From Candidatus Shapirobacteria bacterium (lineage in GTDB: Bacteria > Patescibacteriota > Microgenomatia > UBA12405), in assembly GCA_017992115.1 (NCBI GenBank), contig JAGOPG010000003.1, positions 1-40,137 on the forward strand: DNA of 40,137 nt, written 5' to 3'. Shown in pieces: positions 7,643 through 36,873 of the stretch. The stretch's first letter is position 1, and every line of letters begins with the position of its first letter. The translations under genes and the position numbers were made by a program. The notes under the pieces were generated by a model. The model was given only the letters and a program-made list of their open reading frames with translations. It was not told the origin of the DNA and made no database searches.

Positions 7643-8785
7643 CTAGTTATTTTTACGTAAGAAGGCGGGAATATCAAATTCGTCTTCAATTTCGATTCCT
7701 TCAGGGAGATCTTCGTCTGGAACTAAATTTTTGAGAGCTGGGTCAATATGAGTTTTTGTTTCAGTGTCTAAACTTTCCTGTTGAGTGGGAATGGATTTTT
7801 TAAATGAAGAATAAAATTGGCTTTTATTTGGATCAAAACCTGTGGCTATTACGGTAATTTTTACTTTATCTTCAAGTTCGGGGTCAATTGAAGCTCCAAA
7901 AATAACATTTGCATCAGGAGCTACACGGCTAGTAATATTTTTTGCAGATTCTTCAATTTCGGCCATAGTTAGGTCTTTTCCTCCTGTGATATTAATTAAT
8001 ACCCCTCTGGCACCGTCAATGTTTACTTCAATTAGTGGAGAATCAGTGGCGGCATCGACAGCATCACGTGCTCTGTTGGCACCTTCACCTTCACCTACTC
8101 CCATAAGAGCAGAGCCTGCATTGCTCATAACTGATTTAATATCGGCAAAATCAAGATTAATGAGTCCGGGAACTGTAATTAAATCGGCAATTGCTTTGGT
8201 ACCCTTGGTTAAAACAGAATCGGCTATTTTAAAGGCTTCGATAAGCGTTGCTTGAGAATTAACTACCTCTATCACTTTTTGATTTGGAATAACAATTAGA
8301 GTATCGACATTTGGTCGTAAACGGGAGATACCTTCATCTGCTTTGCTCATACGACGACTGCCTTCAAAAAGAAAAGGTTTGGTTACCACTGCAATTGTCA
8401 AAATACCTAACTCTTTTTTAGCGATTTCGGCAATTATTGGAGCAGCTCCGGTACAAGTTCCACCACCCATACCTCCAGTAATAAAAAGCATATCGGTACC
8501 CTCTAAAGCTTCTTTAATTCTTTCTCGAGATTCTTCAGCTGCTTGTTGACCGATATTGGGATCACCTCCAGCTCCCAGACCTTTGGTAATTTTTTCTCCT
8601 ATTTGAATTTTGATTGGGGCTAAGGAATTTAAAAGTGCTTGAGAATCGGTATTGATAGTAATAAAGTCTACCCCCTTGATTTCTTCTTCCGAGATCATGG
8701 AATTAACAGCATTATTACCACCGCCGCCAATGCCAATGACTTTTATTTTTGCGAACTGTCCGGTTAGAGTTTTAATCAGGGCCAT
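7643..8785 (-). CDS. ftsZ: cell division GTPase FtsZ
   Basis: GGGGNNAVN, the tubulin signature GGMGGGTCTGAAP, and the C-terminal FtsA-binding peptide DIPAFLRK. Confidence 0.97.
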   Translation of the reverse strand: MALIKTLTGQFAKIKVIGIGGGGNNAVNSMISEEEIKGVDFITINTDSQALLNSLAPIKIQIGEKITKGLGAGGDPNIGQQAAEESRERIKEALEGTDMLFITGGMGGGTCTGAAPIIAEIAKKELGILTIAVVTKPFLFEGSRRMSKADEGISRLRPNVDTLIVIPNQKVIEVVNSQATLIEAFKIADSVLTKGTKAIADLITVPGLINLDFADIKSVMSNAGSALMGVGEGEGANRARDAVDAATDSPLIEVNIDGARGVLINITGGKDLTMAEIEESAKNITSRVAPDANVIFGASIDPELEDKVKITVIATGFDPNKSQFYSSFKKSIPTQQESLDTETKTHIDPALKNLVPDEDLPEGIEIEDEFDIPAFLRKNN

Positions 8786-10036
8786 TTAAGGTAGAAGAGG
8801 CTCGATAAAATTTTTAATTTTTCCAAAAATACCATTAAAAGATACTTTAATCTTTTTATTAGTACTACTTTTAGAGACAGGTTTTTGATCTTGAAAATAG
8901 AGAATAGTACCAACAGTACTGGCAAAGGCAGGATTAGTAATGTCTTCAACCAGACCGCCAAGTCGAGGGGGATTGGCGATTCTAACAGGTAGAGGTATCA
9001 TATTTGTACAAACTTCTTTGGCTAAAATAGTATCGGCTCCCCCACCAGTGAGAACGATGCCTGCGGGTATATAGTTTTCCAGACCCGCATCTTTAATTTG
9101 TGTAAAAATAAATGAGAAAATTTCTTCTAATCGGGCTTTAATAATGCCATTAACGGCGGTGGAAAAAGAAATTTTTTTGTTTTCTTCACCCAAAATACCT
9201 AGATGTTTTAATTCAATTTCATCTTCAAAACCTTTTTTATCTGCATATGCCTTGAGTTTGATTTTAATCTTTTCAGCATCTTCTAAAGGTAATCTTAGGC
9301 CAATGGCTAAATCATTAGTGATATTGTTTGCACCAATTGGGATTACTCCGGAAAAAACGGGAGAAGATTCCTGAAATACAGTTATTGATGTACTACTGTT
9401 TCCCATGTCTATCAAAGCTACTCCAAGTTCTTTTTCGGTATCGCTTAGACAAGCTTTAGCAGCAGTCAGGCCAGAATAAGCCAAGGAGTCTACTTTTATG
9501 CCTACTTCATCAAGACATTTATACAAATTTTTTAATGCTGGAGTGGAGGCTAATATTAGATGAGTTTCAACTTCCAGTCTTTGGCCACTCATACCGATAG
9601 GGTCGACTACTCCTGATTCACCATCAACGGTGTATAAACGAGGGATAATATGAACAATTTCTTTATTTACAGGCAAGGAAATGGCTTTGGCTGCCTCTAT
9701 GGCTCGATCTATGTCTGCTTGGGAAATTTCTCCATTTTGACCAGATACGGCGGTAACTCCGGTGGAATTAATTGATTCAAAATGAGGGGCAGTGAGAGAA
9801 ATAAAAGCGTGATTTATTTGAAAACCAGCCATTCTTTCGGCTGATTCTACACATTCGGTAATGGTTTTGGAGGCTTGTTCCAGATTAATAATCTGACCTT
9901 TTTTAAATCCAAGTGCAGGTTGAGACGAAACACCAATGATGTTTACTTTTGAATCGTTTTCCGGATATTGACCAATGAGAACAGTGATTTTGCCAGTACC
10001 AATGCTGAGACAATTAATATTTTTTAAATGTTGCAT
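8786..10036 (-). CDS. ftsA: cell division protein FtsA
   Basis: Actin-fold motifs (LSIGTGKITVLIG, ALIDMGNSSTSITV, GIVLTGGGA). C-terminal amphipathic helix GIFGKIKNFIE. Its stop directly abuts the ftsZ ATG. Confidence 0.9.
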   Translation of the reverse strand: MQHLKNINCLSIGTGKITVLIGQYPENDSKVNIIGVSSQPALGFKKGQIINLEQASKTITECVESAERMAGFQINHAFISLTAPHFESINSTGVTAVSGQNGEISQADIDRAIEAAKAISLPVNKEIVHIIPRLYTVDGESGVVDPIGMSGQRLEVETHLILASTPALKNLYKCLDEVGIKVDSLAYSGLTAAKACLSDTEKELGVALIDMGNSSTSITVFQESSPVFSGVIPIGANNITNDLAIGLRLPLEDAEKIKIKLKAYADKKGFEDEIELKHLGILGEENKKISFSTAVNGIIKARLEEIFSFIFTQIKDAGLENYIPAGIVLTGGGADTILAKEVCTNMIPLPVRIANPPRLGGLVEDITNPAFASTVGTILYFQDQKPVSKSSTNKKIKVSFNGIFGKIKNFIEPLLP

Positions 10037-10045
10037 GATTTCATT

Positions 10046-11122
10046 CTAGAGCTTTTTGAGTAAATTTAATAGTTTAAGGTTGATGTTAGCCTCATTTTTT
10101 GATTTTAGATTTTTAGTCTTAAGTAGTCTTTTTATATTTTTTAGTAAAATTTGGCCATTAAGATTTTTATCTAAAATAATTATGGTGTTTTTAGGGTATT
10201 TTTTGTGAAGCCAAAGAGCATTTTTAAGTTGTTCGTTTTGCTGACTGACAGGTAAAGGAATAATAATGGAATTTTTTTTGAGGGCTTCAATTTCCTGGAT
10301 AGTATTGGCACCTGCTCGACTGATGATTATTTTTGAATTATTAAATACCCAACCAATATCTTTTGCTTGGATGAATGAATAAGCAAAATATAAGGGATAT
10401 TTTTTTTCTAGTTTTTTATATTCATTAAAATCATTTGGCCCGCATTGGTGAATAATAATGGTATCCTTAAGTTGAGGTAGAATTTCTTTTATATTTTCAT
10501 TGAGATGGAAAGAACCCTGGTTTCCGGCAGTAACAAAAATTAAAGGATATTTTTTGATTTTAAACTTTAAAAAATTAAAATTTTTTGAACTACTGTCGAA
10601 GATATCCCTACGCAAAAGATTACCGGTGACGATTTCTTTTGGTGATCTTTTCTTTAAAGGAAAAGATAGAGCAATGAATTTGGAAAATGGAGCACTCAAT
10701 CGTGTAGATAAGCTTTTAGTTTTCGTCTGTTCATGGGTAATACTTTTTATTCCCAAAAGCCAAGCGGCAAAAATTACTGGGACGGAAACATACCCTCCGA
10801 AGGAAACTATTGCCCACGGCTGAATTTCCTTAAGGATTTGATAAGCACTAATGAATCCAGTAAAAATTTGAGGGATTCCCCGGATAGTATTAAAAAAAGA
10901 ACGGCGATCAAACTTACCACAGGGAATAGAATAAAATTTAACTTTTAACGATGGAATAGTCTTTGATTCGATGGACGCTTGTGTGGATGTACAAGAATTA
11001 CATCGGCGACCGATATAATATATTTTCCAGTTGAATTCAGTATCCTGCTGGAGTTGATTAATTAATTCAACGGCTGGAGTGGTGTGAGTTCCGGTGAGAA
11101 CGAGACGGCGAGTTTTGATCAT
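10046..11122 (-). CDS. murG: UDP-GlcNAc:lipid I GlcNAc transferase MurG (divergent G-loop)
   Basis: The position between ftsW and ftsA fits murG. The C-terminal ISRAGANTIQEIEA...IIIPLP...NEQLKNA matches the MurG donor-binding motif. The N-terminal loop is LTGTHTTPAVEL rather than GGTGGH. Confidence 0.8.
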   Translation of the reverse strand: MIKTRRLVLTGTHTTPAVELINQLQQDTEFNWKIYYIGRRCNSCTSTQASIESKTIPSLKVKFYSIPCGKFDRRSFFNTIRGIPQIFTGFISAYQILKEIQPWAIVSFGGYVSVPVIFAAWLLGIKSITHEQTKTKSLSTRLSAPFSKFIALSFPLKKRSPKEIVTGNLLRRDIFDSSSKNFNFLKFKIKKYPLIFVTAGNQGSFHLNENIKEILPQLKDTIIIHQCGPNDFNEYKKLEKKYPLYFAYSFIQAKDIGWVFNNSKIIISRAGANTIQEIEALKKNSIIIPLPVSQQNEQLKNALWLHKKYPKNTIIILDKNLNGQILLKNIKRLLKTKNLKSKNEANINLKLLNLLKKL

Positions 11123-12200
11123 CTTTTGAGTATAACAAGGTAGAGTATTTTTTTTCTATATTTATAGCTAATCCCATAGCTGCAAAAAGATTAATAAGCG
11201 AAGAACCTCCGTAAGCGATAAAAGGAAAAGGGATACCAGTTAGGGGGATTAGGCCGACAATGGCGGCAAAATTAATAATCCCCTGAAAGGCGATCCAGGA
11301 TGCAATTCCAAAAACCAGAAGTTTTTCATAATCATGAGCAGCTACTTGAGCTAAACGAAAAAGGCGGGAAATAAGGATTAAAAATAAATAGGTGATCAAA
11401 ATTAAACCAATGAAACCCATTTCTTCACCGATGATAGCCAATATTGAATCAGTACTAATTTTAGGAAGGAATTTATATTTATGATCAGAGTTGGCAAAAC
11501 CTTTGCCGGTAATTCCCCCAGAAGCAAGTGTTAAAACCATTTGTTGACTGTGATAACTGAGATTTTGATTTTCCTGTTGGTTTAGCAGGGTTTTTAAACG
11601 ATCAAGACGATAGGGAGAAACTAAAACTAAAATTACAGAAGTTAGTATGAAAAACAAGGAAGGAATGAGTATATCTTTTATTGAAGCTCCGGACAAAAAA
11701 TAAATGCAAAATACTATTGCGCCTATCAAAATTGCGGTGCTAAGATTTGGTTCCAAAACAACAAGAAGCAATGGTGGTAAAAGATACAGTAATAGACTAT
11801 TAAAATTTTTTTTATCTTCGAGAGTAAAAAGATATGAAAAGAAAATTACTGAGACCAGTTTAAAGAATTCTGAAGGTTGGAAATTAAAGAAAGAAAAACT
11901 AATTTGTCTTTTGGCGCCATAGGCTTCTACACCTAACCCGGGAATAAAAACTAGAATTAAAAAAATTATACCCAATAAATATAATCGAAAAGAATTTTCT
12001 TTTACTAAATTTAAATTTATTTTAGAAGTAATAAAAAGTACTATTAAGCCGATAAGCAGCCAGAGAGATTGTTTTTTGATGAAAAAATAGGGATCACCTA
12101 TATCTTTTGAAGCCTCAAAAAGTGAAGATGAAGACATAAACAAGAGTCCGATTATACTTAAGATTAAAACGTATATAAAAAGCAAGGAAAAACGTTTCAT
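11067..12200 (-). CDS. ftsW: SEDS-family lipid II polymerase FtsW
   Basis: PSEFFKL, EPNLSTAIL, DSILAIIGEEMGFIG and PLTGIPFPFIAYGGSS. The dcw context fits. The tail overlaps murG by 56 nt. The start shares ATGA with the stop of the ATP-grasp gene. Confidence 0.85.
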   Translation of the reverse strand: MKRFSLLFIYVLILSIIGLLFMSSSSLFEASKDIGDPYFFIKKQSLWLLIGLIVLFITSKINLNLVKENSFRLYLLGIIFLILVFIPGLGVEAYGAKRQISFSFFNFQPSEFFKLVSVIFFSYLFTLEDKKNFNSLLLYLLPPLLLVVLEPNLSTAILIGAIVFCIYFLSGASIKDILIPSLFFILTSVILVLVSPYRLDRLKTLLNQQENQNLSYHSQQMVLTLASGGITGKGFANSDHKYKFLPKISTDSILAIIGEEMGFIGLILITYLFLILISRLFRLAQVAAHDYEKLLVFGIASWIAFQGIINFAAIVGLIPLTGIPFPFIAYGGSSLINLFAAMGLAINIEKKYSTLLYSKDDQNSPSRSHRNSHHSSR

Positions 12201-13282
12201 TTGAATTTTTTTAGATGTTCTTCATTAATAGTTTGCACTTTATTGGTTATGATTTTAAAATCTTCTATTTTTTGGGAAATAGTTCCTGAAGGATTTCTCT
12301 TGGTTATTTGAGAGCCAATTAAATTAGGATTATCAAAACGAGACTGTTCTTTTTTGAGATTAAATTCATAATCTAATGGTATAAATTGGGCTAAATGATG
12401 GTAAAAAAGCGGGGTAAGACCAGCTTTTTGTTCTATATAAGTGTAAAAAGCAAAAGAGGCGGTTAGGCGTGGATTGCATTCAAGTAAATAAATTTTTTGA
12501 GGAGTAACTAAAAAATCAAGTCCAAAGAAACCGAGATAATTTAGGGGTTGGAGAATTTTTTTTGAAAAATTTTGAGTTATTTTTTTTATTTGACGAAGTT
12601 GTGATTTGTGGAGAAGTGAGGGCCACTGACGTCCTACGGTGGCAAAGGGATTGCTGGTTAGGGTTGGAATTCCTGTAAATTGAAGAGCGGGTGGGCTTTG
12701 CAGGAGACCTTTTTTTGTTTGGCAACAATTGTTTAAAACAGAAAAACCCTGAATATAAGGGGAAAACTTAACCAGCATATTTTTTGGAATGTGTTTTTTA
12801 GCAGAGGTGTAATTATCAAAATTGTAAGTACTATTACCTGCCCACCCAAAATGGCTTTGGATGACTAGATTTGAGCCGTAAGCTTGCTGGGCTTTTGAAA
12901 AATTTTTTTGATTAAAAGGTAAAATTAAACTATCTATCAGAGGTAATTTAGCTTTTTGGCATTGTTGATAAAATTTAATTTTATCTTCCAGTAGACGATT
13001 ATTTTTGGCACTGGGAGCTGCTAGTAACCAGTGATTTTTTTGACAAATTTTTTCTATTTTGGCGGAAGGTTTAAAGGGAACGATTACTGGATTGGCAAAT
13101 GACTTGATATTTTTTTGAATGTTTTTATCTGCCAAAAGTTTTCCACTATTTTTATAGGTTAATTTTTTTTTACTGACACTTGTAAAATTTGGTATTTCGG
13201 GAAGAGAAATATCTAAAAAATTTTCGACAACTAAAAAGAAAAAATGATACGGTGACGATTTTATAGCTTGAGTGAGGGTCAT
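12197..13282 (-). CDS. ATP-grasp carboxylate-amine ligase, specificity unknown
   Basis: LEDKIKFYQ.., LVIQSHFGWAGNS, SPYIQGFSV and GFFGLDFLVTPQKIYLLECNPRLTAS (E-x-N-P-R type Mg/ATP site). I place the start at ATG 13282, not 13360, because it forms ATGA with the stop of the upstream gene. Confidence 0.65.
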   Translation of the reverse strand: MTLTQAIKSSPYHFFFLVVENFLDISLPEIPNFTSVSKKKLTYKNSGKLLADKNIQKNIKSFANPVIVPFKPSAKIEKICQKNHWLLAAPSAKNNRLLEDKIKFYQQCQKAKLPLIDSLILPFNQKNFSKAQQAYGSNLVIQSHFGWAGNSTYNFDNYTSAKKHIPKNMLVKFSPYIQGFSVLNNCCQTKKGLLQSPPALQFTGIPTLTSNPFATVGRQWPSLLHKSQLRQIKKITQNFSKKILQPLNYLGFFGLDFLVTPQKIYLLECNPRLTASFAFYTYIEQKAGLTPLFYHHLAQFIPLDYEFNLKKEQSRFDNPNLIGSQITKRNPSGTISQKIEDFKIITNKVQTINEEHLKKFK

Positions 13283-14073
13283 TGACGTTGGGTTCCAGTA
13301 CAAACAATAACTGGATAATTTCCTGCAAGGGAAGCATTTTGTTTGTATGCTGCCAGGCAAAGAGCAGACTCGGATGAGAGAAAATGTCCTTTTAATAATT
13401 TTTGAGATTCGATAATGGCTTGGTTGTTGATAATAAAAGCTGTTGATTGGTGTTTTTTTATGATATTAATAATTTTATTTTTTAGGGGAAGAGATTTTAC
13501 TGTTAGGGCATCGGTGATGATTTTGTTTTCTGGTTTATAATTTTTGACGAAATATTTGGCAATAGTAGGATTGGCTGCACTTTGAACCCCAAAAACTTTA
13601 ATGTTTTTGGGTAAAGCTTGTGCAATTCCAAGTAATGTGGTGCCACTGCCGACGGGGATAAAAATGCTACTAACTTGTGGTAATTGTTCAAGTATTTCTT
13701 CACCAATCTGGCGGTATCCTAAAAGAGCACTTGGATCAGTAGATTGACGTAAATTATAAGCATGATTTTTTTTAGCAAATTTGATAGCGTCACTGATAGC
13801 TTTTTTAGATTTGATTACAGAAGCAGAAATTAATTTAAGTTTTTGGGGGTTAATCGAAGGAGAAATAAAAACGGTCAATTTTATATTTTGTAAGTGACAA
13901 AAGTGAGCTGCAGAGATGGCAGCATTACCAGTTGAAGAAATTACTGCTTGAGAATATTTTTGTTTTTGGAGATTTTTAAGTTGCTCTATAATGGCTCGGT
14001 CTTTAGCTGAGCCGGTAAGGTTTTTATCTTCTCTTTTTAAGTAGACTGAATTAAATTTTTCTAAAGGAGTCAT
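13279..14073 (-). CDS. PLP-dependent enzyme, fold type II (threonine synthase / cysteine synthase / racemase-like), short form
   Basis: Schiff-base lysine context YLKREDKNLTGSAKDRA (compare NPTGSFKDR); SSTGNAA; Gly loop PVGSGTT; DPSALLGYRQIGEEILEQL resembles the threonine synthase core. Only 264 aa. Confidence 0.7.
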   Translation of the reverse strand: MTPLEKFNSVYLKREDKNLTGSAKDRAIIEQLKNLQKQKYSQAVISSTGNAAISAAHFCHLQNIKLTVFISPSINPQKLKLISASVIKSKKAISDAIKFAKKNHAYNLRQSTDPSALLGYRQIGEEILEQLPQVSSIFIPVGSGTTLLGIAQALPKNIKVFGVQSAANPTIAKYFVKNYKPENKIITDALTVKSLPLKNKIINIIKKHQSTAFIINNQAIIESQKLLKGHFLSSESALCLAAYKQNASLAGNYPVIVCTGTQRQ

Positions 14074-14080
14074 ATATAAT
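14051..14080 (+). promoter_or_regulatory. candidate promoter for the plus-strand LysW-like ORF
   Basis: Perfect TATAAT at 14075-14080, 27 nt upstream of ATG 14108. A weak -35 TTAAAT lies at 14051-14056 with an 18-nt spacer. The AT-rich context makes chance occurrence likely. Confidence 0.2.
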
Positions 14081-14107
14081 AATATAGTTATATTTTAGCT
14101 AATATTT

Positions 14108-14272
14108 ATGAAAGGCGCTAAAGACAAAGTAATATGTCCTGATTGTAAATCAGTTATTAATAGTAAAGATGCAGCTGTTGGTGATATTTTGGAATGTGAG
14201 GAATGTGGCACTGAGGTAGAAGTGTTGTCTATCAAACCATTAAAATACCGGGAATTGATTGAGGAGAAGTAA
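14108..14272 (+). CDS. LysW-like zinc-ribbon protein (possible amino-group carrier protein), 54 aa, not in the ORF track
   Basis: My own translation is MKGAKDKVICPDCKSVINSKDAAVGDILECEECGTEVEVLSIKPLKYRELIEEK. CPxC...CxxCG with GDIxxC..CG.E.EV...PL follows the LysW/ArgW pattern. It is the only ORF I found by eye covering the gap between the flanking minus-strand genes (14074-14231). The tail lacks the canonical EDWGE. Confidence 0.55.
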   Translation: MKGAKDKVICPDCKSVINSKDAAVGDILECEECGTEVEVLSIKPLKYRELIEEK

Positions 14273-14801
14273 TTCGGTAAATACCATCGTATTTAAAATT
14301 TTTGTCATTGATATCAAATTGCCCGTAATGAACTTTGCGACCTGCCCGAGAGCTTTCGACATAATAAATTTTGTTTTCAACTTTTTCAATAATAAAGATA
14401 ACGTGGCCTCCTTTTTCTTGACGAATTAAGTCGGCAGTCTGAGCATCCTTTATATTTATTTTTTTAGAAAGCGGGGCAGAAGTGAGAATGTCGGCGGAAG
14501 TTTTTCGAGGGTTGAAATTAGTTTTAAGGTAGAAATTAAGTAGTTGGACAGTCAAACCAGAGCAGTCAATTCCAATTTTATGTTTTTTTTGAAAATTGTA
14601 AATTTGAGTTGGAGTCATATTGATGATTTTTTTATTATCCGTGTTTGCTAATTCTATGGTTTTCAGGGCGATTTCTTTGGCATTACCCTTGCCAACTAAA
14701 GCAATCTCAGGAAGGTATTTTTTGGTGACGTTCATGTAATAAGGAATGCCAATATATTTATCTATTTCTTTATAAAGTTCTTCTAATTTAGACCTAACCA
14801 T
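14232..14801 (-). CDS. NlpC/P60-family cysteine peptidase/amidase, no signal peptide
   Basis: Catalytic Cys context GIDCSGLTVQLL, downstream His in GGHVIFII, then YYVESS. The N-terminus MVRSKLEELYKEID is hydrophilic. I prefer ATG 14801; the track's 14867 start lies inside mraY. Confidence 0.6.
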   Translation of the reverse strand: MVRSKLEELYKEIDKYIGIPYYMNVTKKYLPEIALVGKGNAKEIALKTIELANTDNKKIINMTPTQIYNFQKKHKIGIDCSGLTVQLLNFYLKTNFNPRKTSADILTSAPLSKKINIKDAQTADLIRQEKGGHVIFIIEKVENKIYYVESSRAGRKVHYGQFDINDKNFKYDGIYRITSPQSIPGILMV

Positions 14802-15817: not shown

Positions 15818-17142
15818 GTTTTGATATATTTTATACTAGCACCTAATGAGCATAAACGTTCAGCTAGTTTTTCATAACCTCTCTCGATGTATTCAACATT
15901 ATTGATAAGACTCTCCCCTTCTGCGGTTAATGCAGCCAAGGTAATACAGGCACCAGCGCGTAAATCGTTGACATCAAAAGTTGATGCTTTTAGTTTATTT
16001 GGGCCATAAATTTTTACTCCATGAAAATATTCTGGTTTGTCGGTGTCTAGATTAAACTCATAATAAGTTTCAGGGTGTTCAACAATGGGGTTGAAAAGGG
16101 TGGTTTTAACCCCCATTTTATTCAAATAGGTAATGTGTTGGAAGCGGTAAGGATAGACTCTCTCTATAATAGTACTGACACCAACAGCTTGAGTTAACAA
16201 AACTGAAAAAACGGCTTGCCAGTCGGTCATAAAACCTGGTTCAGGACCGGTTTCTATATTAATAGCACTTAGAGGTTTTACCCAAGAGACGGTTACTTCA
16301 TCGCTTCCACGGTTGATTTTTGCCCCCATTTTCTCGATGGTATCTAAAAATGTTTTGATAATATTTGGATTTACCCGAAGGATATTTACAGAACCTTTGG
16401 TAGCGAGGGCAGCGCAAGCAAAGGTGACTGTTTCATTCCTGTCAGAAATTACTTGATGGCTGGTACCATGGAGTTGACTTACTCCATTTACAATAATAGT
16501 TTTTGGATTTTTTGGATCGCGTTTAATATCTGCCCCCATGGAATTGAGCATGACGATTAAATCATCAATTTCTGGCTCTTGAGCACAGTTTTCAAAAATA
16601 CTCTGTCCGGGTGTCATGGCGGCAGTCATTACAATGACTTCGGTTACAGTATGGCTAGGTTTATTAAAAACATAATGAGTTGTCTTTATTTTGTCTGTAG
16701 AAAATATCATCAAATCTTTTTCAAATGTTGTAGAAATTCCCATTGTTTCGAAACAATCAAAAAGACGGTCCAGGGGGCGGGCACCTAAGCGATCACCTCC
16801 TGGTGTGGGTATAATGGCTTTACCGGTTCGGACCAAAAGTGGTGCTGCAAAAATAAACGAGGTTCGGGATTTTTCTCCGGTACCATGAGGAACAGTGGAT
16901 GATTTAATTTTTTTAGTTTGAATAGTAATGCCATGTTCGCCATCGTTTGTTATTACAGATCCCAGACTTTTGGCAATACTATTTGTAATCCGAACATCAG
17001 AAATTTGAGGAACATTGAGTAAGTGACATTCTTCTTCGGTTAATAGGGTGGCTATTAATTCTTTGTATGAGGCATTTTTTGCACCTCGTATGGAGACTTC
17101 ACCGATTAAAGGATTACCTCCTTGGATGATGTATCTTGACAT
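15814..17142 (-). CDS. murA: UDP-GlcNAc 1-carboxyvinyltransferase MurA (Asp at the fosfomycin-target position)
   Basis: IQGGNPLIGEVSIRGAKNA, the active-site loop PTPGGDRLGARPLD and LRAGACITLAAL. Length and architecture are typical of MurA. Confidence 0.9.
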   Translation of the reverse strand: MSRYIIQGGNPLIGEVSIRGAKNASYKELIATLLTEEECHLLNVPQISDVRITNSIAKSLGSVITNDGEHGITIQTKKIKSSTVPHGTGEKSRTSFIFAAPLLVRTGKAIIPTPGGDRLGARPLDRLFDCFETMGISTTFEKDLMIFSTDKIKTTHYVFNKPSHTVTEVIVMTAAMTPGQSIFENCAQEPEIDDLIVMLNSMGADIKRDPKNPKTIIVNGVSQLHGTSHQVISDRNETVTFACAALATKGSVNILRVNPNIIKTFLDTIEKMGAKINRGSDEVTVSWVKPLSAINIETGPEPGFMTDWQAVFSVLLTQAVGVSTIIERVYPYRFQHITYLNKMGVKTTLFNPIVEHPETYYEFNLDTDKPEYFHGVKIYGPNKLKASTFDVNDLRAGACITLAALTAEGESLINNVEYIERGYEKLAERLCSLGASIKYIKT

Positions 17143-18429
17143 TTATTTTTTAAAATAATTAATAACTTTTTTGAAAATATTTAAACCCTCTTGTCCTCCG
17201 GAACTAAAATGAACAAGTATTTCATTTTTTTTAAGTGTTTTTTGATAATGATTGAGAACATCGATTGGTAATGGTAAATAAAAACTGTGGGGAATAATTT
17301 TTAGATAATCCTTGGCTGTTAAGCGAATTTTATATTTGTGGTTAAAGTTGAGTTTATAAATTACGGTTTCGGAAGATAGTTCTAAAGCTTTGGCGAGTTG
17401 TTTTATACTATCGGGATGTTGCATAAAGGAAGCATGACTTTCATAAAATACCTTGATTTTTTTTTGAGGATAATGTTTAATTATCGTTTTAATAGTGGCT
17501 TCAATTCTTTTTGCAGATTGAGAAAAATCATCGATAAAAATATTATTTTGATTTTGAAAAAGTATTTCAGCCCGTCTTTTGATGCCTTTAAAATCGGTTA
17601 AGGCATTTTGAGTGATTTGTGTATTTAGTAATAGTTTTTGACAAAGGGTAAAAACAGCACCTAAATTCTGGAGATTATAATCCCCAATTAACTGGCTTTT
17701 AAATTTAATTGGTTTATAGGGAATAGTAGGACATTTAGCAGATAATAATAAGGGAGGTATCTGTTTGTCTTGAGGGTTGTAAATAATTAAACCGTTTTTG
17801 GGAAGGCTATTAATTAATTTCTGAAATGCTTTTAGATTTTCAGTAGCAGAGGTATAACTTTCTTTGTGTTCCCAGTTAACACTGGTCAAAATAAGGTATT
17901 TTACTGGATAATAGAGGAATTTTGCTTTGACATCTAAACCGTTAATAGATTCGTCACCTTCTATTATCGACCAGTCTGAATTAGAAAAATTTAATGAAGG
18001 TATAGCATTTATAGCTTGACCACCAAACATGTATGCTGGATTCAGGTGGTGTTTTTTAAAACAATAAACCAAGGCAGCGGTAGTGGTTGTTTTACCAAAA
18101 GACCCGGCAACGACAATAGAATTTTTTTTGGTTAACATTTTTGCTAAATATTTAGTTGCTGATATATACGGAATATTAAGTTCTCGAGTTTTTTCATACT
18201 CTTCTCTTGTTCTAGAAAAACTTTTATAGGATGAACCTACTATTACCAAATCAATATTTCGATTAATTTGTTGGTGATTTATGGGAATTTTGGCTTTCTT
18301 TAATTGGGTACTAAAAGGAGGAAAAATGTTATCTTGATCTGAGCCAGTAATTTCATGACCTGATTTCTTTAAGGCTATAGCCAGAGGTGCGGCCATAGAA
18401 CCAGCGATTCCAATAATATGGATATGCAT
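17143..18429 (-). CDS. Mur ligase of the MurC/Mpl type
   Basis: N-terminal Rossmann IHIIGIAGSMAAPLAIALKKSGHEITGSD; IPYISATKYL; P-loop VVAGSFGKTTTTA at about residue 113. DDFSQSAKRIEAT sits where MurC/Mpl have DD[YF].HHP. Confidence 0.7.
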   Translation of the reverse strand: MHIHIIGIAGSMAAPLAIALKKSGHEITGSDQDNIFPPFSTQLKKAKIPINHQQINRNIDLVIVGSSYKSFSRTREEYEKTRELNIPYISATKYLAKMLTKKNSIVVAGSFGKTTTTAALVYCFKKHHLNPAYMFGGQAINAIPSLNFSNSDWSIIEGDESINGLDVKAKFLYYPVKYLILTSVNWEHKESYTSATENLKAFQKLINSLPKNGLIIYNPQDKQIPPLLLSAKCPTIPYKPIKFKSQLIGDYNLQNLGAVFTLCQKLLLNTQITQNALTDFKGIKRRAEILFQNQNNIFIDDFSQSAKRIEATIKTIIKHYPQKKIKVFYESHASFMQHPDSIKQLAKALELSSETVIYKLNFNHKYKIRLTAKDYLKIIPHSFYLPLPIDVLNHYQKTLKKNEILVHFSSGGQEGLNIFKKVINYFKK

Positions 18430-18431
18430 GG

Positions 18432-19034
18432 CTAATTATAAGATATCCATTGATTATTAACAAAGTATTCAAAATTGGGAAAGTTTCTTTTGTAAAAACC
18501 TAATTTATTTTTGGGGTTGAAGCGACCCAGATAACAATACTTTAATTGCTTAGCGGCGCTATCGATGGCCGTTTGAAGAGCAAGCCTGATGGGTAGATCC
18601 TGATGAGCGTATTTTGGATTATAAAAAACATAGGCAATATGGGAAAAATTCTTCTCAAAGAGGCAAAGTGAGTAGGCAACCACCTGATTTGTAATAGTGT
18701 CTGTCCAAATATAAAGATAATTAAAAATATGATTCTTAAAAACAGTTTTTATGGAAGAAGAGGGAAAATCCCAATTTAATTCCTTAACCCACGAATGGAT
18801 AGTTTTTTGTAAAGATGGAGTGTATTCGAAAGTACTTAAAGGAACTAATTGATGAGTAAAATGTTGGGTTTTTTTTAGAATACGACGATTTTCTGATGAA
18901 AGTTGAAAATTATCTAATTTTGAGCGTGAGGAAAAATTATCATCGGTATAAAATAATTTTTTTTGATTGCGTTGAGGCAACCATCCTTGTTGGTAATTTT
19001 CTTCAAGACTTAGATTATTTTGTAAATTAAACAT
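18432..19034 (-). CDS. Bpt/ATE-family (arginyl/leucyl-tRNA protein transferase-like) GNAT-fold protein
   Basis: FQLSSENRRILKK, VVAYSLCLFEKNFSHIAYVFYNP and YCYLGRFNPKNKLGFYKRNFPNFEYFVNNQW resemble the ATE_C/Bpt core (..S.S.RR.., A.Y.F..P, YLGY....M.YK..F.P.E.....W) as I recall it. The Cys-rich ATE_N motif is absent. Confidence 0.5.
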   Translation of the reverse strand: MFNLQNNLSLEENYQQGWLPQRNQKKLFYTDDNFSSRSKLDNFQLSSENRRILKKTQHFTHQLVPLSTFEYTPSLQKTIHSWVKELNWDFPSSSIKTVFKNHIFNYLYIWTDTITNQVVAYSLCLFEKNFSHIAYVFYNPKYAHQDLPIRLALQTAIDSAAKQLKYCYLGRFNPKNKLGFYKRNFPNFEYFVNNQWISYN

Positions 19035-20277
19035 TTTTTTCCTTTAATCGGAAAGCAGTGCGAAATGCTTCGGTTTCAGACCAGGGGTATTCGGTTTTAC
19101 CCAATAAAATCGATGTTTCATGACCTTTTCCACAGGCAATAATGGTGTCTCCTGATTTGGCGATTTTGACAGCTAAATTAAATGCATCCTGACGGTTTGA
19201 TAATTGAGTGTATAAAAAGCCACTTTGGTTTTCCGGGAATTTATCGGCTTCAAAATAAGTTGATTTTTTAGGGTTTATCCCGGAAATAATTTGAGCATTT
19301 ATAGTGTTGATATTTTCATTACGGGTGTCGTCGGATGTGATTATGGCAATATCAGCAATTTTTGAAACGACATCACCCATTAGAGGACGTTTGCTTTTGT
19401 CGCGGCCACCAGTAGCCCCGAAAATAACAATTAATCTTCCTTTTACACTTGGTTTTAGAGAAGATAAAACCTTGGATAAAGCGTTGGGGGTATGAGCAAA
19501 ATCAACTATACAACGAAGATGAAGGTTGTTGTCGACCAATTCTAATCGGCCTTTTATTTCCGGGAAATGGGCTATAGTTTCGGCAAAAACATTTGAGTCC
19601 AGTTTTAGTTCAGAAAAGGCTGAGAAACAGGCTAAGATATTATATATTTGATAATCGTAATTAGAGTCCGTTATAAAATTGTGGCGATTAATTCTGAAAG
19701 TCATATTTTCTGGAGTAATTTTAATTCTGTCTGCAGTGTAATCTGATTTGTTTTTAAGGCCATAAGTTTTAAATTTAACATTAAGAGATTTTTTTATATC
19801 TGAAAAATATTCATCATCATGATTGAGAATGGCTAATTCAGATTGGGTAAAAAGTTTTTCCTTGGCTTTTACATATTGATCCATGTTTTTGTAATAATCC
19901 AGGTGTTCGTGGCTAATGTTGGTAATAATGCCAATTTTAAAATTACATCCCCAATAACGAAACTGACTTAATGCGTGAGAAGTAACTTCACAAACTACAT
20001 GAGTGTAGCCAGATTTAGAAAAATCATATAAAATTTTTTGCAAAATTTTGGGTGAAGGGCTGGTTGTATGCAATCCGGGACTGTTGATAGTGCTAATGAC
20101 TCCGGCGTGTATACCACTGTTTTCTAATAATTTTTGCAATAGTGTACAGGTGGTTGTTTTTCCATCAGTACCAGTTACTCCAATCAGAGTTAATTTGCGA
20201 CTGGGAAAGGAATAGTAGAAATTCCAGAAGATGGCTTGAGGTAAATGCCAAAGCCAATTTTTTAGGGTTTTGAGCAT
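19027..20277 (-). CDS. murE: MurE-like Mur ligase lacking the N-terminal UDP-binding domain
   Basis: FYYSFPSRKLTLIGVTGTDGKTTT (P-loop Lys at residue 40), VDFAHTPNAL, FGATGGRDKSKRPLMG and TSDDTRNE (the DNPR position). Confidence 0.7.
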   Translation of the reverse strand: MLKTLKNWLWHLPQAIFWNFYYSFPSRKLTLIGVTGTDGKTTTCTLLQKLLENSGIHAGVISTINSPGLHTTSPSPKILQKILYDFSKSGYTHVVCEVTSHALSQFRYWGCNFKIGIITNISHEHLDYYKNMDQYVKAKEKLFTQSELAILNHDDEYFSDIKKSLNVKFKTYGLKNKSDYTADRIKITPENMTFRINRHNFITDSNYDYQIYNILACFSAFSELKLDSNVFAETIAHFPEIKGRLELVDNNLHLRCIVDFAHTPNALSKVLSSLKPSVKGRLIVIFGATGGRDKSKRPLMGDVVSKIADIAIITSDDTRNENINTINAQIISGINPKKSTYFEADKFPENQSGFLYTQLSNRQDAFNLAVKIAKSGDTIIACGKGHETSILLGKTEYPWSETEAFRTAFRLKEKNV

Positions 20278-20290
20278 ATGGGCTTATGAA

Positions 20291-21868
20291 TTATAGCAAG
20301 GAGTCCAAGTCTCTGGCGAGACTAAACCATAAAGGAGCAGCGGTAGATGACCCCCATTGAGATGCTTTTGGATTGTTCAAAGTAACAATCATGGTAAATT
20401 TAGGCTGGTTACAGGGATAAAAGCCTATATAAGAGCCGATAGTATTGTCTTCTTGATATTCACCTTCAACAGCTACTTGGGCGGTACCACTTTTGGCGCA
20501 AACAATCATGTCATCATCTTTTAATTTGGAAACTGGACTATTATTGACGCCATAAATTAACAACTTTTTTACAAAATCTGTTGTCTTTGTAGAAAAAACT
20601 GAAGAAGATTGGATTGGTGTGTTTTGATTTATGTGAGCTTTGACTAATTTTCCATCGTTTGCTAGTGTATTAAAAGCTTGTACCATTTGTAATTGGTTGA
20701 CAGCAATACCTTGACCAAAAGAAGCGGTGGCGAAATCTATGTCTGACCAATAGTCTTTAAGGGGTGAGATTGATTCCCCCACTAGTTCAACGCCAGTTTT
20801 TTGATTGAATTTGAGACGTTGGTAATATTCGAGGAATTTATTTAATCCCATGGCGCTGTTGATATAGCTCATACTAATATTGTCGGAATTTTTGATGGTA
20901 TCGAAAAGGTTGGTATCAGGATGAACTTGTTTGTCCCAATTATTTATAGTATATTCACCGATTTTCCGTGGTTGATTACAGTTTGGACAGTTCCAGTTTT
21001 GATTAATACTATTTGAATCCAAAGCAGAGGCAATGACTAGGGGTTTAAAAATTGATCCGGGTTCAAATAGATGACCAATGTTTTTTATGGTAAAGCTGGC
21101 ACTAGGGCTAGCTTCAACTGTCGCCATGGCCAATATTTCTCCACTTTGAGGTTCAAGAATAATTAGAGAGGCAGATTCAGCTTGATAAGTGGCAAGACCG
21201 ATTTTGAGTGTGTCTTCAGCTAATTTTTGGATTTTTCTATCAATGGTAGTGTGTAGATCCTGGCCATCTATTTCATTTTTTTGCCAATTTTTCCGTGTTA
21301 ATAATCCAATTCCGGTACCATCGACTACGTTTCTTTTAAATCCTACTTGACCACTAATTTGTTTTAAATATTTTTTTTCTAAATTTAAAACTAGATCCTT
21401 GGCCAAATCCCCTTCCGGATAATAGCGGCGTTGTTTCAGTTCAAATTCTAATCCGCTGGTTTTGGAGAGTTTATTTTTCTCAGCTGTATTAAACTCACCT
21501 TTAAATTGAAGCCATTTTTGATTAGGATTTTTAAATTTATCAATTAATTGAGCATTTTGGGTGGCAAAATCGCTTTTAATTGAAGTAATTTCTGTTAGGA
21601 TTTCATCAAGGTCATTTTTAAAATTTGGTTTATATAGGGCTAAACTATAATAACTGTAACCAAGGCTTAAGGGATATTTATCGCGGCTCAGGATTTTACC
21701 CTGACGAGGGAAAATTTTTACAATCTTATATATTTGAGATAAGGCCTGTTCGTGTAATTCCTGGCCAGAAATTACTTGGATGTAAAATAATTTTCCTAAT
21801 ATCAGGGAAAATATAATATATAAAAAAATTAAAAGGATTTTAGGGCGTGATTTGTCCATTGATAGCAA
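20291..21868 (-). CDS. ftsI: class B penicillin-binding protein (FtsI-type transpeptidase)
   Basis: N-terminal TM; SxxK in GSIFKPL; SxN in KNSDNIS; KSG in AKSGTAQ. The track start at 21868 is TTG; ATG 21859 (MDKSRP..) is an alternative. Confidence 0.85.
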   Translation of the reverse strand: MLSMDKSRPKILLIFLYIIFSLILGKLFYIQVISGQELHEQALSQIYKIVKIFPRQGKILSRDKYPLSLGYSYYSLALYKPNFKNDLDEILTEITSIKSDFATQNAQLIDKFKNPNQKWLQFKGEFNTAEKNKLSKTSGLEFELKQRRYYPEGDLAKDLVLNLEKKYLKQISGQVGFKRNVVDGTGIGLLTRKNWQKNEIDGQDLHTTIDRKIQKLAEDTLKIGLATYQAESASLIILEPQSGEILAMATVEASPSASFTIKNIGHLFEPGSIFKPLVIASALDSNSINQNWNCPNCNQPRKIGEYTINNWDKQVHPDTNLFDTIKNSDNISMSYINSAMGLNKFLEYYQRLKFNQKTGVELVGESISPLKDYWSDIDFATASFGQGIAVNQLQMVQAFNTLANDGKLVKAHINQNTPIQSSSVFSTKTTDFVKKLLIYGVNNSPVSKLKDDDMIVCAKSGTAQVAVEGEYQEDNTIGSYIGFYPCNQPKFTMIVTLNNPKASQWGSSTAAPLWFSLARDLDSLL

Positions 21869-22049
21869 ACTTGGAGGCGTATTCTATTTCCAGATTTTGA
21901 TTGTCAATATTTAACTGTTCGTATTTTTGGCTTAAATTAGCATATTGTTGATTCATATTTATTATATTTATCGAGTAATAAATAGAAAATATTATTTGAA
22001 AAATAATTAATGCCAGAGCAACAGCGACAAGACTTTTATTTAGTGTCAT
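21840..22049 (-). CDS. ftsL: FtsL/DivIC-like septation protein
   Basis: Small bitopic protein: a TM segment (LVAVALALIIFQIIFSIYY) followed by the coiled-coil-like NQQYANLSQKYEQLNIDNQNLEIEY. The position between rsmH and ftsI fits. I prefer the start at MTLNK (22049) over 22106. Confidence 0.5.
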   Translation of the reverse strand: MTLNKSLVAVALALIIFQIIFSIYYSINIINMNQQYANLSQKYEQLNIDNQNLEIEYASKFAINGQITP

Positions 22050-22911
22050 GATTGATAAAACATCTAAACATGGCAGATCGGGAGAGTGGATTCCTTTTGA
22101 TCTCACTATACGATGCGGAAAATTTGTTTGATTTTATTTTATTTTTTTGAAGAAAATTTTTTACAATTCTATCCTCTCCGGAGTGAAAAGTGATAATACC
22201 TATCTTACCATCTTTTCTAACTATTTTTTGGGACGTGTTCAATAATTTTTGAAGATTATTGAATTCGTTGTTGACGGCAATTCGAAGAGACATAAAAATT
22301 TTTGTGGAGGGATTAATTTTTGAACGATAATGTTTTTTTTGATAATAGTTTTCGATAATGGTGGCAAGTTGAATACCTGTAGTGATAGGTTTCTTTTGTC
22401 GAGCTTGAATTATCTCAAAAACTAGTGGTTTGGCTAATTTTTCCTGGGAATATTTGGTAAATAAATTATAAAGTTGAAACTTGTCCCAAGTATTAATTAT
22501 TTCTTCAGCAGTTAATTTTTGTTTTTTGGGATTAAGACGCATATCCAAAGAGTCGGTATCAGAATAAGAAAAACCACGTTTTGTGGATACTTGTTGGTTT
22601 CGACTAAGGCCGAGATCAGCAAAAAGTGCGTCAAGGGGTATCTTTATATGACGAGAATATATTTGGTTTAGATTACTAAAATTACCTGATATTGGATGAA
22701 ATCTTTTATCCAATTTTTCTTTTTTAATTCTTTTGGTAGTAATTTCTAAATTAATAGGATCGTCATCAAGACCAAAAACAGTAGCTCCCTTTTTTAAAAA
22801 TTCTAATGTATGACCACCATTACCTAAAGTGCAATCTAGAATAGCAAGACCCTCTTTGGGTTGAAAAAAATTTAGGACTTCATCAAGGAGGACAGGTTGA
22901 TGATAGGTCAT
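22036..22911 (-). CDS. rsmH: 16S rRNA (cytosine1402-N4)-methyltransferase RsmH/MraW
   Basis: HQPVLLDEVL, DCTLGNGGH, ADLGLS and FHSGEDRIVK. Confidence 0.95.
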   Translation of the reverse strand: MTYHQPVLLDEVLNFFQPKEGLAILDCTLGNGGHTLEFLKKGATVFGLDDDPINLEITTKRIKKEKLDKRFHPISGNFSNLNQIYSRHIKIPLDALFADLGLSRNQQVSTKRGFSYSDTDSLDMRLNPKKQKLTAEEIINTWDKFQLYNLFTKYSQEKLAKPLVFEIIQARQKKPITTGIQLATIIENYYQKKHYRSKINPSTKIFMSLRIAVNNEFNNLQKLLNTSQKIVRKDGKIGIITFHSGEDRIVKNFLQKNKIKSNKFSASYSEIKRNPLSRSAMFRCFINHDTK

Positions 22912-36866: not shown

Positions 36867-36873
36867 AAGCAGA

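Follow-up and report, generated by a model that had tools for sequence, protein, structure and literature searches.

The window analysed here is a stretch of 40,137 nucleotides from a Candidatus Shapirobacteria genome, and the system in question is its division and cell wall (dcw) gene cluster, in which the gene for the Mur ligase MurD is missing and several unusual genes are present. The window is contig C23 of a 582,552-base genome that is assembled in 44 contigs and is 90.67% complete, and its G+C content is about 35%. In bacteria the canonical dcw order, mraZ-rsmH-ftsL-ftsI-murE-murF-mraY-murD-ftsW-murG-murC-(murB)-ddl-ftsQ-ftsA-ftsZ, is highly conserved. We called genes from a listing of open reading frames (ORFs) together with Pfam and NCBIfam scans of the window ORFs, and the scans bore out the 16 genes that an earlier reading of the window (the original prediction) had placed in the cluster, all on the minus strand except a LysW-like ORF. 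Taken as a whole, the cluster suggests that this ultra-small bacterium of the candidate phyla radiation (CPR) begins its peptidoglycan peptide in a manner not yet described. Its features, in the direction of transcription, are:

22036-22911, minus strand: rsmH (mraW), which opens the cluster (TIGR00006, 223 bits, cut-off 154)
21840-22106, minus strand: FtsL/DivIC-like small membrane protein, a weak assignment (TIGR02209, E = 0.0024; DivIC, E = 0.0057; both below cut-off)
20291-21868, minus strand: ftsI, class B penicillin-binding protein (PF00905, E = 1.6e-53)
19027-20277, minus strand: murE, short, N-terminal domain absent (TIGR01085, 334 bits, cut-off 257; profile matched from about position 76-93 on)
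18432-19034, minus strand: Bpt-like transferase of predicted ATE/Bpt fold, 200 residues (ATE_C in Pfam, E = 1e-4; NCBIfam arginyltransferase, E = 1e-7; both below cut-off)
17143-18429, minus strand: MurC*, a divergent murC/mpl-like Mur ligase (murC 191.6 bits, cut-off 335.1; mpl 154 bits)
15814-17142, minus strand: murA (TIGR01072, 401 bits, cut-off 393)
14783-15817, minus strand: mraY (TIGR00445, 171 bits, slightly below the cut-off of 192; PF00953)
14232-14867, likely start 14801, minus strand: X211, a 211-residue ORF for an NlpC/P60-like cysteine peptidase (assigned by motifs; no family hit)
14108-14272, plus strand: LysW-like zinc-ribbon mini-protein of 54 residues ending in E-E-K, a putative carrier (TIGR01206, E = 8e-9, below cut-off)
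13279-14073, minus strand: fold-type II pyridoxal phosphate (PLP) enzyme, here PALP, 264 residues (PF00291, E = 7.8e-41)
12197-13282, minus strand: ATP-grasp ligase, 361 residues from the likely start at 13282 (ORF to 13360; PF02655, E = 1e-8)
11067-12200, minus strand: ftsW (TIGR02614, 301 bits, just below the cut-off of 337.5; PF01098, E = 6e-86)
10046-11122, minus strand: murG (TIGR01133, 178 bits, below the cut-off of 250; PF04101, PF03033)
8786-10036, minus strand: ftsA (TIGR01174, 372 bits)
7643-8785, minus strand: ftsZ, which closes the cluster (TIGR00065, 420 bits)

The genes are packed as tightly as had been claimed: 13 nucleotides separate ftsI from murE and 9 separate murG from ftsA, with no ftsQ in between, and the other genes lie 0-2 nucleotides apart or overlap. 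The LysW-like ORF had been thought to occupy a gap of 158 nucleotides, for which it is too long; it converges on the X211 gene and overlaps its 3' end by 41 nucleotides. The most likely start of X211 is 14801, the resulting 189-residue form being identical to an ESM Atlas entry, and alignment places the most likely start of the ATP-grasp gene at 13282, where it shares the letters ATGA with the PALP stop codon. Upstream of rsmH the neighbour is a 200-residue lipoprotein-like ORF (22914-23516), with no mraZ there, and the FtsL/DivIC-like ORF has an equivalent position in relatives. Nine canonical dcw genes and the weak ftsL-like ORF keep their usual relative order, among them rsmH, the ftsL-like ORF, ftsI, murE, mraY, ftsW, murG, ftsA and ftsZ; MurC* stands outside the canonical murC place, and six genes are absent from their slots. 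The presence of murA inside the cluster, which had been singled out as unusual, was confirmed but falls within known dcw variation, since the longest form described in the accessible part of a dcw survey comprises 17 genes, murA and murB included (PMC8871954). That survey, in the same part, leaves out the CPR (PMC8871954). The cluster departs from the canonical one in that MurD, MraZ and FtsQ were not found in the genome, that the sub-threshold MurC* is present for MurC, and that five non-canonical genes are fixed in the cluster.

As predicted, mraZ, murF, murD, murB, ddl and ftsQ are absent from the cluster, and none of them is among the 17 other ORFs of at least 110 residues scanned in the 40-kb window. 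The genome-wide inventory places some of them elsewhere: murF, with alr beside it, and murB lie on contig C30, and ddl is found in two pieces at contig ends (C30:31574-31957 and C3:3-395). The two ddl pieces share profile positions 70-146, and C30 and C3 therefore probably abut or overlap. The assembly contains three Mur-ligase genes, murE and MurC* in the window and murF on C30, and these same three are the only matches to the MurD model (TIGR01087, cut-off 211.95 bits) in this 90.67% complete genome, all of them below cut-off and the best, murE, at 101.6 bits. Nor did we find in the assembly FtsQ (PF03799), MraZ (PF02381), the MurI family or a D-amino-acid transaminase (Aminotran_4). Because murF, murB and ddl lie elsewhere, the six missing genes reduce to one biosynthetic gap: the genuine gap is MurD, plus any known source of D-glutamate.

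The original prediction held that the substitutions are not random insertions, and the comparison of dcw synteny across the lineage bears this out, the inserted genes being constant among relatives and forming a conserved unit that tracks the presence or absence of MurD. From 41 genomes of relatives in the same order (the order sample) we fetched 13 loci representing six families. The LysW-like gene on the opposite strand, PALP and the ATP-grasp gene stand in the window order in all 13, with ftsW next wherever the stretch reaches, and murE-Bpt-like-MurC*-murA-mraY lies upstream where the contig extends far enough; X211 is present in nine of the 12 fetched loci that span its place. The window order also recurs, as far as the contigs reach, in 80 Shapirobacteria-type loci that a pattern scan across species genomes picked out. 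Among these 80 the ATP-grasp gene was counted in 80, PALP in 76, the LysW-like gene in 71, X211 in 70, MurC* in 58, murE in 56 and the Bpt-like gene in 55, the absences coming mostly from loci that end before the place in question, as judged by gene strings rather than by contig coordinates. In families f26 and f20 a fuller cluster is found, ftsI-murE-Bpt-MurC*-murB-murA-ddl-murF-mraY-X211-(LysW)-PALP-ATP-grasp-ftsW-murG-...-ftsA-ftsZ, from which it follows that the four genes X211, LysW-like, PALP and ATP-grasp occupy the canonical murD slot, from mraY to ftsW. In full clusters this set lies between mraY and ftsW, and in the MurD-type loci described below it directly follows murD. A shuffle peculiar to the lineage had been expected to reveal itself by missing genes found elsewhere in the genome together with inserted genes that vary; half of the missing genes are indeed elsewhere, but the inserted genes stay constant from one relative to the next, contrary to the second expectation.

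Some of these loci deserve separate mention. At locus L141 (genome G254) the Bpt-like gene, MurC*, X211, the LysW-like gene and PALP are contiguous and stand apart from mraY, with the ATP-grasp gene 5 kb further; this contiguity means that the Bpt-like/MurC* pair and the four-gene set are physically tied. Loci L034, L035 and L036 (families f5/f6) have an extra Mur ligase between murA and mraY, murF-like by its position and with side hits to TIGR01087, and X211 was not detected at these three loci. Many of the records with a Shapirobacteria-type cluster (e.g. L054, L056, L057 and L105) bear the title 'uncultured Gammaproteobacteria bacterium', and one is called 'Candidatus Methanoperedens sp.'; they look mislabelled or mis-binned.

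The unusual genes fall into two sets. The first consists of the Bpt-like gene and MurC*; the second, which we call the carrier set, consists of the NlpC/P60-like, LysW-like, PLP and ATP-grasp genes, the NlpC/P60 member being usual in it, not constant. The carrier set accompanies MurD in other lineages and occurs in two forms, either with canonical MurC and a MurD diverged in its N domain or with the Bpt-like gene and MurC* and no MurD genome-wide, and the two forms were never seen together in the loci and genomes examined. In the order sample the ATP-grasp gene is present in 37 of the 41 genomes, the four without it being family f2, the sole family in the sample that lacks it (0/4), and MurD passes its cut-off in three of the 41, all of them f2. 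The f2 loci hold canonical murC-murD, murE, murA, mraY and X211, with none of the Bpt-like, LysW-like, PALP and ATP-grasp genes nearby.

The same exclusion holds in a sample of 301 Microgenomatia genomes (the class sample), one of which (G108), flagged as unpublished, contributes to the tallies only. The ATP-grasp profile matches 62 of them, which we read as 51 strong orthologs (E < 1e-80), one truncated ortholog and ten weak matches; MurD passes its cut-off in 208 of the 301, and when the two lists were read against each other none of these 208 was among the 52 genomes with a strong or partial ATP-grasp ortholog. The Bpt-like profile matches 34 of the 301 genomes, every one with a strong ATP-grasp ortholog, and MurD was matched at E <= 1e-45 in none of the 34, many of which are 95-99% complete and one of which is a single contig. 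The remaining 18 genomes with a strong or partial ATP-grasp ortholog all belong to family f42. The four f42 genomes checked carry a MurD-like ligase of 118-188 bits, below cut-off, at 1.1-2.2 kb from the ATP-grasp gene and with the profile matched mostly from about position 80. The three f42 loci fetched read X211-MurD-(LysW)-PALP-ATP-grasp, lie away from the dcw genes and have no Bpt-like gene, and in two f42 genomes the MurC of the dcw cluster passes its cut-off (402 and 412 bits).

In a third sample of 401 genomes from across the phylum, with an ATP-grasp threshold of E <= 1e-60 and 17 loci fetched, the ATP-grasp gene occurs in 20 genomes, 19 of them outside the class. Outside the class, five loci are of MurD type, NlpC/P60-MurD-(LysW)-PALP-ATP-grasp-ftsW-murG, with canonical murC following in the two that are long enough, and five are of Bpt type, murE-Bpt-MurC*-X211-mraY-(LysW)-PALP-ATP-grasp-ftsW. 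None of the loci has both MurD and Bpt-like/MurC*; the remaining ones are too short or are paralogs. The two Bpt-type families are represented by six genomes, in none of which a genome-wide search found MurD (E <= 1e-35); a Bpt-type locus is present in five, and the locus fetched from the sixth (G481) shows neither a Bpt-like gene nor MurD. In the MurD-type genomes outside the class MurD was found in five of five, each time only as the copy adjoining the carrier set. At 235-259 bits these MurDs score above the cut-off, and four of the five match the profile only from about position 77-94; the canonical MurDs of the class sample cover profile positions 1-440 and score 320-420 bits.

We rejected several readings of these data. 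That all ATP-grasp hits are orthologs is not the case, as the ten weak class hits (E 1e-25 to 1e-59) include paralogs, and eight of the ten genomes concerned carry canonical MurD. Three such paralogs (L144, L145 and L146) lie in sets with a 7TM_transglut protein and an ATPgrasp_ST-aspartyl-protease fusion, with a RimK-type ligase or a GNAT protein in one locus each; these sets are a different, uncharacterised peptide-modification system in MurD-bearing Microgenomatia. An ORF between murE and murC in f42 is not a hidden Bpt gene but encodes a Cu-oxidase_4 (YfiH/PgeF-type) protein. In f42 this gene has the place held by the Bpt-like gene in Bpt-type clusters, and across MurD-type lineages a Cu-oxidase_4 gene lies between murE and murC or just before NlpC/P60-MurD (L147:10916-11578, L148:14075-14743, L164:5391-6098). 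Nor does a short MurE go with the carrier set: MurE is short (401-454 residues) in the MurD-bearing f2 also, equally so in three of four genomes. The MurE of the window and of L047, L048 and L049 has no N-terminal UDP-binding domain, and this holds in the order whether MurD is present or not. About 28 of the 301 class genomes have neither MurD (E <= 1e-45) nor the ATP-grasp module, for example G042, which is one contig and 100% complete.

The protein encoded by the Bpt-like gene is probably an aminoacyl-tRNA-dependent transferase, to judge from its modelled fold. The ATE_C domain is matched in 10 of 12 family members (best E = 2.9e-6); the window protein itself reaches 23.4 bits on ATE_C against a cut-off of 25 and has no ATE_N match, and the family profile found no match at E <= 1 in a sequence search of solved structures in the PDB. 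The AlphaFold2 (AF2) model has a mean predicted local distance difference test (pLDDT) score of 96.6, and its best fold match is human ATE1 (Z 16.0, root mean square deviation 3.0, 196 of 200 residues; Foldseek E = 5.8e-9), followed by MprF aminoacyl-phosphatidylglycerol synthases (Z 14.3), FemX (11.9), FemA and an aminoacyl-tRNA-dependent peptide synthase. ATE1, MprF, FemX and FemA all use aminoacyl-tRNA, and the link to ATE1 comes from the weak family hits and the fold. With ATE1/Bpt and Fem/MprF proteins the model shares a fold of the type of GCN5-related N-acetyltransferases (GNAT) over its whole 200 residues. It differs from ATE1/Bpt in its length, about 200 residues in the window's family and about 250-290 in other families, in having no ATE_N match, and in its gene being embedded between murE and a Mur ligase, to which it is fused in one genome.

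That ligase, MurC*, is itself altered. The window protein matches the MurC model mainly over residues 2-228, and Pfam recognises its N and middle domains only. In the family, all ten Bpt-linked proteins score 170-288 bits on the MurC model, below its cut-off of 335.1, and the mpl score is 20-52 bits below the murC score in nine and 0.7 bits above it in one. The MurC of MurD-bearing relatives scores 358-425 bits, over the cut-off in five of five, with mpl 127-221 bits lower. Since this split follows the Bpt-like gene, the divergence of MurC is tied to the presence of the transferase. At 154 bits the window protein is also far from the cut-off of the Mpl model (TIGR01081, 388.7 bits), so that MurC* belongs to neither equivalog. 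Most of the divergence falls in the half of the protein with which Mur ligases bind the incoming amino acid. MurC* is the only candidate for joining anything to UDP-N-acetylmuramic acid (UDP-MurNAc). It resembles Mpl, the UDP-MurNAc:L-Ala-gamma-D-Glu-meso-diaminopimelate ligase, in scoring close to the Mpl model, and differs in falling below both cut-offs. Three fusions were observed: Bpt-MurC* in genome G030, through a Pro/Ser-rich linker of its own; MurC*-X211 in L156, of 695 residues with no linker; and the C-terminal part of PALP with the ATP-grasp protein in L152, of 649 residues, with no linker and close to a contig end.

The four proteins of the carrier set can be assigned to families with varying precision. 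The original prediction of an NlpC/P60 peptidase stands as far as motifs go, although the window protein X211 has no Pfam or NCBIfam hit, PF00877 included. G-x-D-C-S-G, C102, His155 and 'HSS' are invariant in 30 sequences, and the D-C-S-G cysteine with a downstream histidine is what we take to be the NlpC/P60 catalytic motif. The X211 profile gives marginal matches to Spr/MepS in the PDB (E 0.05-0.09), the Atlas cluster nearest to it is labelled 'NlpC/P60 family' (score 0.98) and has PF00877 assigned to 26% of its members, and in four of four loci tested in other classes proteins that pass PF00877 hold the place of X211 beside MurD. No N-terminal signal sequence is apparent in X211. The LysW-like protein appears from its sequence to be a true LysW relative: a 12-sequence profile matches solved LysW chains (3wwl, E = 3.9e-9; 5k2m, E = 5.5e-9) and C-x-x-C...C-x-x-C is invariant, with the window sequence alone scoring 35.2 bits on TIGR01206 against a cut-off of 53.2. 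It ends in lysine without exception, in 68 of 68 sequences and in 13 of 13 taken across classes, and this lysine is preceded by E or Q at position -1 and by E, I or V at position -2. We found no longer proteins with a fused LysW-like domain, in a search that is weak evidence. PALP scores 140.8 bits on PF00291 (cut-off 35) and has an invariant Schiff-base lysine, K24, in S-A-K-D-R; against solved structures it scores 79-95 bits with threonine synthase, 82-93 with Ser/Thr dehydratases and 67-76 with Ser/Asp racemases, and by these comparisons it looks like a subfamily of its own among the fold-type II PLP enzymes. The AF2 model of the ATP-grasp protein has a pLDDT of 96.3, and the nearest folds are PurK (Z 25.7), BesA (23.7), peptide/L-amino-acid ligases (20-23), PylC (21.8), Ddl (16-19) and LysX/ArgX (17.4-17.6). 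The fold searches thus return generic ATP-grasp neighbours only, at 8-15% identity, from which no substrate can be read, and there is no RimK Pfam match.

The closest known parallel to the carrier set is the pairing of LysW/ArgW with LysX/ArgX in lysine and arginine synthesis of Thermus, Sulfolobus and Thermococcus, which likewise joins a LysW-like zinc ribbon, similar by profile, to an ATP-grasp enzyme encoded alongside. LysW has an acidic C-terminal tail that ends in glutamate, the attachment site. The tail in the window's family ends in an invariant lysine instead, and its alignment stops about six residues short of the end of the solved LysW chain. The ATP-grasp enzyme does not appear to be of the RimK/LysX type, LysX/ArgX (Z 17.5) coming behind about 30 other ATP-grasp enzymes, and the partners here are a PLP enzyme and an NlpC/P60 peptidase in a cell-wall context. 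A second parallel, and the nearest alternative in print, is the MurD2/MurL route to D-glutamate in Xanthomonas and some Actinobacteria, in which, according to the accessible part of its description, bacteria without a D-glutamate source alter the second stem-peptide step while keeping a MurD-type ligase, MurD2, and adding an ATP-dependent epimerase (PMC8788868). Here no MurD-type ligase was found and the extra genes are from other families; MurD2 thus has no counterpart in the genome, and for MurL no search was made. We found no published description of the present gene set in the full-text literature, from which subscription journals are largely absent.

From these observations we hypothesize, with about even confidence in the whole, that this dcw cluster is native to a Candidatus Shapirobacteria genome (Microgenomatia, Patescibacteria/CPR) and conserved by vertical descent, and that two conserved gene sets in it have rebuilt the MurD step of peptidoglycan precursor synthesis. 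As part of this joint hypothesis, and with the same balance of confidence, the Bpt-like transferase and MurC* would stand in for canonical MurC and MurD; their co-occurrence, their one fusion and their mutual exclusion with MurD are observed. A non-canonical route probably installs residues 1 and 2 of the stem peptide, as a dipeptide assembled beforehand with the help of a carrier that ends in an invariant lysine. That the two residues are joined before they reach UDP-MurNAc is probable because the transferase fold needs an amine acceptor, of which UDP-MurNAc offers none, and because one Mur ligase remains for two residues. The Bpt-like transferase would move residue 1, probably L-alanine from tRNA, onto the alpha-amine of a Glu-like residue 2; MurC* would then ligate the pre-joined unit to UDP-MurNAc, as Mpl does with a ready-made peptide, a step that would also parallel the addition of D-Ala-D-Ala by MurF; and MurE, followed by MurF from the other contig, would complete the pentapeptide.

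The carrier set would prepare or hand over the building block for residue 2. Speculatively, the ATP-grasp enzyme may load glutamate on the terminal lysine of the carrier, the PLP enzyme may set the D-configuration of the carrier-bound glutamate, the transferase/MurC* pair, or MurD in other lineages, may act on the bound residue, and the NlpC/P60 peptidase may release the product. In its most specific form, in which a protein carrier takes the place of UDP-MurNAc as the site where the first two residues are built, we think this scheme unlikely and offer it tentatively. The ATP-grasp enzyme would here join the gamma-carboxyl of L-glutamate to the epsilon-amine of the C-terminal lysine of the LysW-like protein, the fold-II PLP enzyme would epimerise the still-free alpha centre to D, and the ATE-fold transferase would add L-alanine from Ala-tRNA to the alpha-amine, the Mpl-like MurC* making the join to UDP-MurNAc; in MurD-type lineages the N-domain-divergent MurD would instead add UDP-MurNAc-L-Ala at the alpha-amine. 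The original prediction of a variant stem-peptide pathway encoded as a unit is thus upheld as regards the conserved unit, but the five unusual genes split into two sets with different phyletic behaviour, and the data are equally compatible with a variant stem peptide and with an ordinary L-Ala-D-Glu start reached by a variant route.

We stress that several points weigh against the rebuilding of the MurD step. The independent lineages are few, about eight Bpt-bearing families in the class sample and two outside it, and kin are not independent. The assembly is in 44 contigs and 90.67% complete. X211 is undetected in three of the 12 loci that span its place, and it occurs in f2 without the remaining set. 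The matches of the Bpt-like and LysW-like proteins to curated family models are below cut-off, and the ATP-grasp enzyme has no close solved relative, LysX/ArgX reaching only Z ~17.5. The two fusions in L156 and L152 have no linker and may be artefacts of a sequencing frameshift or a lost stop codon. The MurD-bearing f2 is without MurI, Aminotran_4 (0/4) and this PALP family (0/4), so that having no known D-glutamate source is not special to set-bearing genomes, f2 having MurD and yet no such source that we could find; scavenging of D-glutamate may be a simple alternative. A gene of the Asp/Glu-racemase family was moreover found in seven of the 41 relatives, all in the window's family f1. Finally, we infer the acceptor, the tRNA, the amino acids, the carrier role and all protein activities.

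Among the rival explanations, the one that survives best, although we think it unlikely, is that the genes tailor a side chain or cross-bridge, as happens in Gram-positive bacteria: a FemX-like Bpt-like transferase would act on the epsilon-amine of residue 3, the PLP and ATP-grasp enzymes would add a D-amino-acid branch, and the D-glutamate step would be carried out by something else. In enterococci an aspartate racemase and an ATP-grasp D-aspartate ligase form such a pair and produce D-Asp branches. Fold-II Ser/Asp racemases are among the sequence neighbours of PALP, the fold neighbours of the transferase model include FemX and FemA (Z 11-12), and Fem transferases, in the accessible parts of two reports, use aminoacyl-tRNA on peptidoglycan precursors (PMC2655667, PMC2175331). 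Tailoring, however, leaves D-glutamate ligation unexplained in genomes with three Mur ligases only, gives no reason why Bpt-like/MurC* and MurD should exclude each other among set-bearing genomes or why MurC has diverged only where the Bpt-like gene is present, and has no role for the LysW-like protein.

Salvage of peptidoglycan fragments by episymbionts is a rather unlikely explanation, in which the NlpC/P60 enzyme cuts imported peptides down to L-Ala-D-Glu, a dipeptide that the Mpl-like MurC* then joins to UDP-MurNAc, so that both MurD and a D-glutamate source become dispensable; the transferase and the carrier set would then serve other ends or repair the peptide. Mpl and cytoplasmic gamma-D-Glu-diamino-acid peptidases have roles in recycling, MurC* scores between MurC and Mpl, it is fused to the NlpC/P60 protein in L156, and a D-glutamate source was not found in this genome or in family f2. 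What salvage does not explain is the strict pairing and fusion of a tRNA-type transferase with MurC*, or the carrier/PLP/ATP-grasp set that is also found beside MurD.

We consider improbable a simple non-homologous displacement, with the PLP enzyme as a glutamate racemase replacing MurI, MurC* as a fast-evolving MurC and the Bpt-like protein as unrelated N-end-rule machinery. The ATP-grasp gene does occupy the murD slot, MurI was not found in the genome, and ATP-grasp enzymes and Mur ligases both form amide bonds via acyl-phosphates, as stated in the accessible part of PMC8788868. Yet in f42 and three families from other classes the ATP-grasp, PLP and LysW-like genes have MurD right beside them, and because MurD adjoins them there they are not its substitute in those families; it is the Bpt-like/MurC* pair, and not the carrier set, that varies with MurD loss, and displacement ignores the carrier and the fusions. 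The replacement of MurI by the PLP enzyme was rejected in its own right, as we found no complementary pattern: the seven genomes of the order sample with an Asp/Glu-racemase-family gene all belong to the module-bearing f1, and none to f2.

A lineage-specific shuffle without function, with murD lost from the assembly only, could appeal to the 44 contigs and incomplete genome but is extremely improbable given that MurD was matched in none of the 34 Bpt-bearing genomes of the class sample (E <= 1e-45), near-complete ones included, and in none of six genomes of the two Bpt-type families in a separate sample (E <= 1e-35), and that the gene order is conserved across classes.

To our knowledge, every organism that makes peptidoglycan is assumed to use the Mur ligase series MurC-D-E-F, which is a target of antibiotics. 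We found no MurD in 34 of the 301 Microgenomatia genomes sampled or in two further families of Patescibacteria, where a tRNA-type transferase and an altered ligase consistently take its place, and a LysW-type carrier set linked to the MurD step is present in ~17% of the genomes in the class sample and ~5% of those in the phylum sample. If the rebuilding of the MurD step with the help of a carrier is true, it would represent a new biosynthetic logic for the cell wall, in which a protein carrier and a charged tRNA serve the stem-peptide backbone; it would be the first carrier-protein-dependent and tRNA-dependent synthesis of that backbone and a second role for amino-group carrier proteins, and would explain how these reduced genomes handle the D-glutamate position.

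Outside the cluster, ileS (4844-7615) comes next after ftsZ and is directly followed by a second SEDS protein of the FtsW/RodA family (3831-4847, minus strand; PF01098, E = 7e-69), a pair that likewise follows ftsZ in most of the relatives' loci. A surface-polysaccharide cluster of 12 genes lies at 27385-39119 on the minus strand and includes a sugar transferase, a nucleotidyl transferase, seven GT1/GT2 glycosyltransferases, a Wzy-like polymerase and a hexapeptide acyltransferase, and a DUF4012 protein is encoded at 25416-27365, just below it in coordinates.

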